A stretch of DNA of 485 nucleotides from Escherichia coli (GCF_003334785.1 NZ_QOWV01000087.1), one strand, 5' to 3'; counted from the stretch's first letter, positions 1 to 485 are shown. Notes: generated by a model not told the origin, from the letters alone. Made by a program: numbers and translations.

Positions 1-33
1 GTGTTGACGAACTCCTGCCATGGAACGTAGTAC

Positions 34-396
34 TCACCAATAAATAAGCGTCAATACGGTGCTCCGTTGACGCTTACTTTCATTCGCCCGGTAGCATGAA
101 CCATTATCCGTCAGCCACTCCACTGGAGACGCCGGAAGCTCGCTGCCAAAGCGGCGTTCCACTACTCCCAGCATGACGTCCTGTACTGTTTCACTGTCGA
201 AGCCACCCGTTGTGACCGCCCAGTGCAGTGCCTCACGGTCACAGCAGTCCAGCGCGAACGTGACCCGCAGTTTTTCTCCGTTATCACAGCGGAACTCGAA
301 CCCGTCAGAGCACCATCGCTGATTACTTTCTTTCACAGCCACTCTGCCGGTATGTGCCCGTTTCGATGGCGGTACAGCGGGTTTTCGCTCAAGCAA
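34..396 (-). pseudogene. insD: Internal fragment of an IS2-type (IS3 family) transposase OrfB/InsD, integrase-core (rve/DDE) region. Intact as a 120-codon ORF but truncated relative to the full-length transposase of about 300 aa, so most likely a non-functional relic.
   Basis: The translation [105 protein letters not shown] is near-identical, with a handful of substitutions, to the middle of E. coli IS2 InsD as I recall it. It contains the IS3-family motifs W-x-x-D (D codon at 304..306) and D-N-G-S-x-Y (D codon at 106..108). The glutamate of the DDE triad and everything C-terminal to it are absent, and the last 15 residues ([14 protein letters not shown]) are read from unrelated flank. The annotated start is a TTG (394..396) with no Shine-Dalgarno-like sequence upstream, and the frame stays open upstream to the window edge at 485. 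Confidence 0.85.
45..76. other. Perfect 10-bp inverted repeat (TAAGCGTCAA, 12-nt spacer, TTGACGCTTA), a potential stem-loop or palindromic protein-binding site; function unknown
   Basis: Read directly: 45..54 TAAGCGTCAA is the exact reverse complement of 67..76 TTGACGCTTA. Inside the spacer, CGG (57..59) can pair with CCG (64..66), leaving a 4-nt loop TGCT. On the minus strand the stem is followed by TTTATTGG, a modest T-tract, and it overlaps the 3' end of the transposase-fragment ORF (stop at 34..36). Confidence 0.45.
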
Positions 397-409
397 CAGC
401 GCATTCTGG
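77..409 (-). mobile_element. IS2-like insertion sequence remnant: internal segment of orfB only, with no terminal inverted repeats, no orfA and no orfA/orfB frameshift window in this sequence
   Basis: Protein-level resemblance to IS2 InsD begins at the codons for QNALLLER (about 397..409) and ends just after the codons for SCYRANE (about 79..81). DNA outside these limits does not resemble IS2 ends as I recall them and is visibly more AT-rich. Boundaries are approximate, about +/-10 bp. Confidence 0.7.
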
Positions 410-463
410 GTAACCGGCTCATTTAAACCGTCTGGTCTGTTTCCTCCGGCTCTACAAAAATAA

Positions 464-485
464 TGTCCATCATTTTTAATGGACA
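464..485. repeat. 7-bp inverted repeat TGTCCAT / ATGGACA around CATTTTTA, in an AT-rich tract at the window edge
   Basis: Read directly: 464..470 TGTCCAT and 479..485 ATGGACA are reverse complements, separated by 471..478 CATTTTTA. It may continue beyond the window. Confidence 0.4.

Follow-up and report, generated by a model that had tools for sequence, protein, structure and literature searches.

Organization of the locus

The stretch of DNA analysed here (the window, 485 nucleotides from Escherichia coli) has an exact match between yceK and mdoH in E. coli WP7-S17-ESBL-04 (NZ_AP022177.1). There, it is part of a nest of insertion sequences (L001 2622–8108 in the coordinates of the extended locus), which consists of an ISEc47-like IS66 element, a 332-bp piece of IS2, and an ISCro1-like IS66 element. 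The window contains the following features:

1–77, plus strand: right end of the ISEc47-like IS66-family element, with the 3' end of tnpC (stop codon at 45–47) and the terminal repeat closing with ...GCTTAC at 77
78–409, minus strand: internal fragment of orfB of IS2 (IS3 family), 332 bp, both termini missing
410–435, plus strand: left terminal inverted repeat of the ISCro1-like element, GTAACCGGCTCATTTAAACCGTCTGG, an imperfect repeat with a GTAA-type start
436–455, plus strand: spacer from the terminal repeat to the leader block, holding most of the hexamer TCTACA (451–456)
456–463, plus strand: A-rich tract AAAAATAA adjoining the left arm of the inverted repeat and corresponding, when read on the minus strand, to the U-run of a motif that resembles a terminator
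463–465, plus strand: ATG taken by PGAP as the tnpA start, giving a 225-aa product (MSIIFNGHYRMKHRTW...); CDS from L001 5463
464–470, plus strand: left arm of the inverted repeat, TGTCCAT
471–478, plus strand: loop of variable length, CA followed by a hypervariable T-run (5 T here), including most of the hexamer TTTAAT (475–480)
479–485, plus strand: right arm of the inverted repeat, ATGGACA, with the sole Shine-Dalgarno (SD)-like triplet, GGA (482–484)

The tnpC gene of the ISEc47-like element is annotated by PGAP in NZ_AP022177.1 as a CDS at L001 3434–5047, and the BLAST coverage breaks at 77/78. The adjoining IS2 piece was identified by ORF translation and by BLAST matches named IS3-like element IS2 family transposase, and it is listed by PGAP as a pseudogene 'missing N-terminus and C-terminus'. 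A minus-strand ORF at 34–396 (L001 5034–5501), which codes for 120 aa in the window and 155 aa in the extended locus, reads out of the left end of the ISCro1-like element, across the IS2 fragment, and on into the right end of the ISEc47-like one. It is almost certainly a chimera of three unrelated elements rather than a gene. At the right tip of the ISEc47-like element, we also observed a 13-nt inverted repeat of 92% complementarity (42–54/67–79, AAATAAGCGTCAA/TTGACGCTTACTT), where the terminal GTAAGCGTCAA has an inverted second copy about 25 nt further inward which overlaps the tnpC stop codon. This repeat could form a hairpin at the 3' end or, alternatively, hold a second, subterminal copy of the site used by the transposase.

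Positions 410–485 are the left end of an intact 2,699-bp ISCro1-like element of the IS66 family. The left boundary was set at G410 because homology begins there in copies with different neighbours, and the left repeat agrees at 18 of 26 positions with the reverse complement of the right end (...GCTTAC, L001 8108). Directly to the right of the tract, PGAP annotates tnpA, tnpB, and the gene for an ISCro1-family transposase (tnpC, DDE_Tnp_IS66) in NZ_AP022177.1, all in the same orientation. The same operon is present in the relatives, with Pfam domains PF01527, PF05717, and PF03050/PF13007/PF13005, and TnpA carries HTH_23 and HTH_Tnp_1 domains. The stop codon of tnpA overlaps the start codon of tnpB (TGATG, L001 6138–6142), and tnpC follows 20 nt past tnpB. 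This layout fits translational coupling, so that any control exerted at the tnpA start would spread to all three proteins. In its GTAA-initiated imperfect repeats, its gene order tnpA-tnpB-tnpC with the tnpA/tnpB overlap, and its length of about 2.7 kb, the element resembles those of the IS679/ISCro1 type, IS679 being the subject of a paper by Han et al. from 2001. The last 86 bases of the window gave 5,255 matches in 1,733 of 5,426 complete E. coli genomes, nearly always annotated as 'IS66-like element accessory protein TnpA'. No 8-bp target-site duplication was found around the ISCro1-like copy, as the left flank CATTCTGG (402–409) differs from the right flank GCAAGGTC (L001 8109–8116). These unmatched flanks suggest rearrangement or successive insertions and deletions in the IS nest instead of a simple insertion, and the missing duplication has no bearing on the family membership of the element.

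In the preliminary description, the tract at 451–485 (tctacaaaaataatgtccatcatttttaatggaca) was taken to lie beside an IS remnant and to hold a weak, outward-reading promoter overlapped by a 7-bp inverted repeat, with a possible gene start further to the right. There is indeed a gene in the plus orientation, namely tnpA, whose conserved start (493, see below) lies 8 nt past 485. The tract, however, is located 42–76 bp inside the left end of an intact IS66-family element, so that any promoter there would read into the IS and not out of it. We regard 451–485 as the putative leader of the tnpA-tnpB-tnpC operon, from which translation of its first gene, tnpA, would be initiated.

Conservation of the inverted repeat

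The inverted repeat is present as described: TGTCCAT (464–470) and ATGGACA (479–485) are perfectly complementary and enclose an 8-nt loop. A perfect 7-bp repeat with a loop of 3–10 nt also occurs in 15.5% of dinucleotide-shuffled windows, and the stem-loop of the window by itself is thermodynamically unremarkable (−8.7 kcal/mol, z = −0.8). Only the comparative data indicate that the inverted repeat is non-random and that the hexamer pair of the proposed promoter is not. For this comparison, relatives were fetched by their TnpA proteins and not by the motif, which yielded 46 loci from species-representative genomes and another 8 via diverged homologs. A 16-sequence alignment of whole left ends gave the following mean column identities:

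Left and right arms of the inverted repeat: 0.99 each
Terminal inverted repeat: 0.93
A-rich tract: 0.90 (close group)
First 20 codons: 0.81
Later codons: 0.72
Spacer with the hexamer TCTACA: 0.70, the lowest value of the left end

Within the arms, GTCC on the left and GGAC on the right were found in all 20 distinct sequences. The repeat is kept at 40–60% TnpA identity in Pantoea, Erwinia, Xenorhabdus, Serratia, Mixta, Klebsiella, and Enterobacter, and likewise in Edwardsiella, Kosakonia, Salmonella, Sodalis, Thauera/Zoogloea, and a MAG. It also precedes elements with a short TnpA that lacks the N-terminal HTH domain (Sodalis). The A-rich tract is absent in the Thauera and MAG groups. While the right arm (GGAC) is separated from the tnpA start codon by 7–9 nt in every group, including the short-TnpA elements, the loop measures 7, 8, 9, 10, 12, or 14 nt in the relatives, and the spacing of the arms reaches up to 28 nt. 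The T-run (473–477 and its equivalents in L003–L061) was observed to vary from 4 to 9 T's in otherwise very similar elements, and the loci of Serratia sp. H1w (L016) and Salmonella diarizonae (L054) carry a loop insertion of 24–27 nt with an AGATCT-type inner palindrome, which provides an inner helix of its own.

One clade with about 42% TnpA identity (Mixta, Erwinia sp. S63, Pantoea formicae/rodasii, and Cedecea) lacks the left arm and contains direct ATGGACAC repeats instead of the inverted pair. Two to three of these repeats are arranged as ATGGACAC-N10-ATGGACAC-N4-GTGGACA in frame with tnpA (L025 1440–1492), and the same right-hand motif is paired there in an alternative CCAUG/CAUGG stem. 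Mixta mediterraneensis contains at least 17 near-identical copies, which suggests a recent expansion of the IS.

The tnpC gene of the ISCro1-like element opens with ATGGACA (L001 6507–6513), the same 7-mer as the right arm. Altogether, TGTCCAT/ATGGACA occurs at 3 sites in 10.5 kb, which is at chance level (32 of 200 shuffles). We rejected the idea that both ends of the element carry the motif subterminally because there is no copy near the right end. A search of L001 4900–5700 on both strands with the covariance models of Rfam 15 gave no match at E ≤ 1. We consider the inverted repeat a conserved cis-element, which is probably cis-regulatory.

The start of tnpA and a possible leader ORF

Apart from the ATG at 463 used by PGAP, a second in-frame ATG is located at the window-equivalent position 493, 10 codons further downstream, and this is probably the tnpA start conserved among the relatives. 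Diverged copies have tnpA annotated from the second start, most full-length TnpA homologs are 204–215 aa long, and indels of 1–2 nt separate the copies between the two ATGs. Among 23 distinct relatives, the upstream start was found in every possible frame with respect to tnpA: 7 have it in frame, 5 have a stop within the loop, another 7 have the stop on the tnpA start codon, and the remaining 4 run out of frame. In one relative (the MAG), the upstream codon is not a start codon (GCG). Because of the indels, the changing frames, the lengths of the homologs, and the annotation of the diverged copies, 463–492 does not appear to be a conserved N-terminus, and ATG 463 is in frame in the window only because the T-run of the loop consists of five T's.

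The conservation of the tract could also be explained by coding constraint only, with 463–492 encoding the TnpA N-terminus MSIIFNGHYR as annotated. This would agree with the PGAP annotation of the 225-aa form, whose protein cluster (WP_001339397.1) has 2,424 members, and with the 7 of 23 distinct relatives in frame. It is contradicted by indels of lengths not divisible by three, which affect the loop as well as the stretch from the right arm to the start, by the other 16 relatives being out of frame or having an early stop, and by the start codon lost in the MAG. Moreover, the identity of the arms (0.99) exceeds that of the coding sequence (0.72–0.81), and third positions are not relaxed. We find coding constraint as the sole explanation hardly credible. 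As a point of annotation, the 225-aa TnpA model, on which thousands of E. coli entries rely, probably has its start placed 10 codons too far upstream. A mini-ORF opening with the ATG of the right arm (MDTIV*), whose stop overlaps the tnpA start, was rejected for lack of conservation: Xenorhabdus and Serratia sp. H1w have it in frame, and in L005 and L006 it runs on without a stop.

The ATG at 463 may open a short leader ORF (M/V-S-I-I-F...), and many relatives have GGGA or GGGGA ahead of the upstream start. The end of this ORF depends on the number of T's in the loop: with 5 T, as in the window, it is fused in frame to TnpA, with 6 T it ends at a TAA in the loop, and with 4 or 7 T it ends at a TGA overlapping the tnpA start codon. 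The T-run might be conceived as a slipped-strand switch in which the number of T's sets the transposition competence of each copy, making the IS phase-variable. In the fused or overlapping states, ribosomes would melt the hairpin and either deliver translation into tnpA or couple it to that of the leader. Because all three states of the leader ORF are about equally frequent, the variation looks more like neutral drift, and we hold such a switch to be very doubtful.

The proposed sigma-70 promoter

The hexamers TCTACA (451–456) and TTTAAT (475–480) are present with a gap of 18 bp and match TTGACA at 4 of 6 and TATAAT at 5 of 6 positions, respectively. They are weak, as the preliminary description had stated itself: a pair of equal grade is contained in 18.9% of dinucleotide-shuffled windows. 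According to the proposal, a weak sigma-70 promoter would fire to the right from about position 487, with the inverted repeat serving as its operator. The spacing of the hexamers is permitted, a gene start follows just downstream, and no better promoter was found in the leader. In addition, a TAAT-ending hexamer at the junction of loop and right arm is kept in most close relatives, with a perfect TATAAT in Xenorhabdus lircayensis.

Promoter prediction on the extended sequence, using a consensus scan of L001 5300–6200 and a PWM for 410–540, yielded nothing above shuffles, and neither method detected a sigma-70 promoter above chance in 410–540 on either strand. The consensus scan made no call at the hexamers, given that the −10 lacks an A at its second position. 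In the PWM, the pair scored 2.9 bits, a value equalled or exceeded every 69 bp or so on each strand of the surrounding locus, as compared to a median best score of 6.2 bits when the 131 nt of 410–540 were shuffled. Conservation of the −35 is lacking: the relatives have TCCACA, TCCGGG, TCGGGG, TCAGAG, or TCCCTG at the equivalent place. Because the length of the T-run varies, relatives that are otherwise intact would have promoter spacers of 17, 18, 19, 20, 22, 24, or over 30 bp. The −10 is located downstream of the annotated ATG 463 and 13 nt upstream of the conserved start at 493. With the PGAP start, it would fall within the coding region, and a transcript starting at about 487 would have a leader of 5–6 nt without a ribosome-binding site or SD sequence before the ATG or, as in most relatives, the GTG at the conserved start. 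As indirect evidence, taken without regard to orientation, an insertion of ISCro1 upstream of afaA in ST131 lowered, and did not raise, afaA transcription and the activity of a promoter fusion (PMC8764528).

We regard the hexamer pair as a probable chance match and not as a supported promoter, and the promoter explanation as very improbable. The earlier suggestion that the repeat is a regulator site holds up in that the repeat, with its conserved arms, looks regulatory, but the promoter it was thought to serve is at chance level. An IHF site and a junction promoter were also considered and dropped, given poor consensus matches by eye.

Base pairing and possible functions of the repeat

In an alignment of 20 sequences, 78.9% of the cells are paired, compared to 24–46% with the partners slid, and the stems of the relatives extend over 10–14 continuous bp with fold z-scores of −2.7 to −4.7. 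Four pairs are changed on both sides, e.g., A:U / G.U / C:G at 462:487. The covariation score amounts to 0.108 versus 0.082 in shuffles and was reached by 3 of 500 shuffles, although related sequences can exceed shuffles without any structure; the stem hardly varies, which keeps the covariation weak. Variation at 463/486 (A.C, G:C, A:U, G.U) was rejected as a case of compensation, with the four combinations occurring at approximately independent frequencies. Non-Watson-Crick cells able to pair on a single strand only are split 9 to 11 between plus and minus, favouring neither strand.

Arms that are invariant rather than covarying, together with wobble counts that favour neither RNA strand, are consistent with (A)TGGACA being a DNA site for TnpA, TnpC, or a host factor. 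Such a site would act at the left end only, in autoregulation or transpososome assembly, and its inversion would be incidental. TnpA with its two HTH domains would be a suitable ligand, and the two to three direct ATGGACAC/GTGGACA repeats of the Mixta/Erwinia/Cedecea clade fit a DNA motif at least as well as a hairpin. The free variation of the arm spacing from 7 to 28 bp, however, argues against a rigid dimeric operator on a palindrome. The motif is absent near the right end, TGTCCAT occurs elsewhere only at the tnpC start in a count at chance level, and the constant 7–9 nt to the start codon would be left unexplained. Furthermore, several relatives show arm changes that preserve pairing (U:A to U.G, A:U to G.U, A:U to C:G). 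Overall, we consider a DNA site rather unlikely.

Read on the minus strand, where UUAUUUUUGU comes after it, the hairpin might represent an intrinsic terminator. It would stop leftward RNA, for example at the 3' end of an antisense RNA over the tnpA start in the manner of RNA-OUT of IS10 or art200 of IS200, or keep transcription from leaving the IS. A scan flagged a terminator-like motif on the minus strand exactly at this place, the minus-strand stem has 12 uninterrupted pairs including G.U, and the A-tract giving rise to the U-run is conserved in the close group. An antisense RNA and a leader hairpin are present together in IS200 (PMC4513863). Against a terminator, the Thauera, MAG, and Sodalis groups have kept the hairpin but have lost or degraded the U-tract, the stem is AU-rich and weak for this purpose, and one terminator-like match is about what shuffles yield (0.5 ± 0.7). 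The best minus-strand promoters scored 5.8–6.1 bits, compared to the shuffle median of 6.2 bits, and would start at or beyond the hairpin, and the consensus scan of L001 5300–6200 found no minus-strand promoter. We judge a terminator function to be quite improbable.

The remaining explanation is a stem-loop in the tnpA mRNA that limits translation, and we favour it because all groups share the 3' arm at a fixed short distance from the tnpA start. TGTCCAT-N8-ATGGACA would fold in the tnpA mRNA with its stem 7–9 nt upstream of the start codon at 493. Ribosome loading would be kept low by the 3' arm, which holds the GGA, and low loading would in turn lead to low expression of the transposition proteins. 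The predicted pairing of GGA with the anti-SD sequence amounts to −3.0 kcal/mol, and the triplet is placed 8–10 nt before the conserved start, while the 5' arm overlaps the non-conserved upstream ATG/GTG. Because the SD-like element is merely GGA, 'SD sequestration' is a loose description of the proposed effect. The 7-bp stem of the window with its unremarkable folding energy and z-score counts against a hairpin, as does the result that no sigma-70 promoter above chance was detected in 410–540. We infer that the repeat lies within the transcript and acts as plus-strand RNA, and we see the prospects of its limiting tnpA translation as evenly balanced.

Comparison with known insertion sequences

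In IS10 and IS50, inverted repeats at the left end include the translation-initiation signals. Incoming transcripts that contain both arms are untranslatable, while the promoter of the element itself starts between the arms and resident transcripts thereby escape. This 'fold-back' against external transcription is reportedly treated by Davis, Simons and Kleckner in 1985, by Krebs and Reznikoff in 1986, and in a review by Mahillon and Chandler from 1998. The ISCro1-like element is similar in having inverted repeats near the left end that would span translation-initiation signals. It differs in the position of the promoter, which starts between the arms in IS10/IS50, whereas none was placed in 410–540 here.

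The closest parallel to the proposed role is found in IS200 (Ellis, Trussler and Haniford 2015, PMC4513863; Beuzon et al. 1999). There, an inverted repeat in the left end folds into a 5'UTR stem-loop which sequesters the SD sequence, and tnpA translation is strongly repressed as a result. Both elements have an inverted repeat in the left end between the terminal sequence and the start of the transposase gene or operon, a leader stem-loop (predicted in our case) over the ribosome-binding region, and promoter elements that are weak or undefined. By analogy, the hairpin of the ISCro1-like element may have the same function of keeping transposase translation very low. In contrast, IS200 is a single-gene element of the HUH/Y1 type which is unrelated to IS66, and its hairpin of about 70 nt contains a near-perfect SD sequence (AAGGGGGU), compared to a predicted stem of 7–14 bp with just GGA in the ISCro1-like element. 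Repression in IS200 was demonstrated by toeprinting and fusions, whereas the case made here is drawn from sequence comparison. IS200 also has a bidirectional terminator and the antisense RNA art200, which are not evidenced for the ISCro1-like element. ISPpu9, a member of another IS family, has its transposase expression regulated through secondary structure in the 5'UTR of the mRNA (PMC8450116), which is analogous to the control proposed here. ISPpu9 differs in employing two sRNAs, one of them stimulatory, whereas the ISCro1-like locus gave neither sRNA evidence nor an Rfam match. In the literature covered, which stopped short of the primary IS66/IS679 papers and ISfinder, we found no description of a leader structure or promoter in the IS66 family, and an earlier description is possible.

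By analogy with these systems, the candidate is most likely a self-limiting IS leader hairpin, which represents a well-known strategy of insertion sequences and would otherwise be ordinary. In Enterobacterales, virulence and resistance plasmids are rich in IS66-family elements such as ISCro1, ISEc8, ISEc23, IS679, and their relatives. The control of their three-gene operon is essentially undescribed, and the near-invariant candidate leader hairpin would offer a concrete and mutable handle on it.
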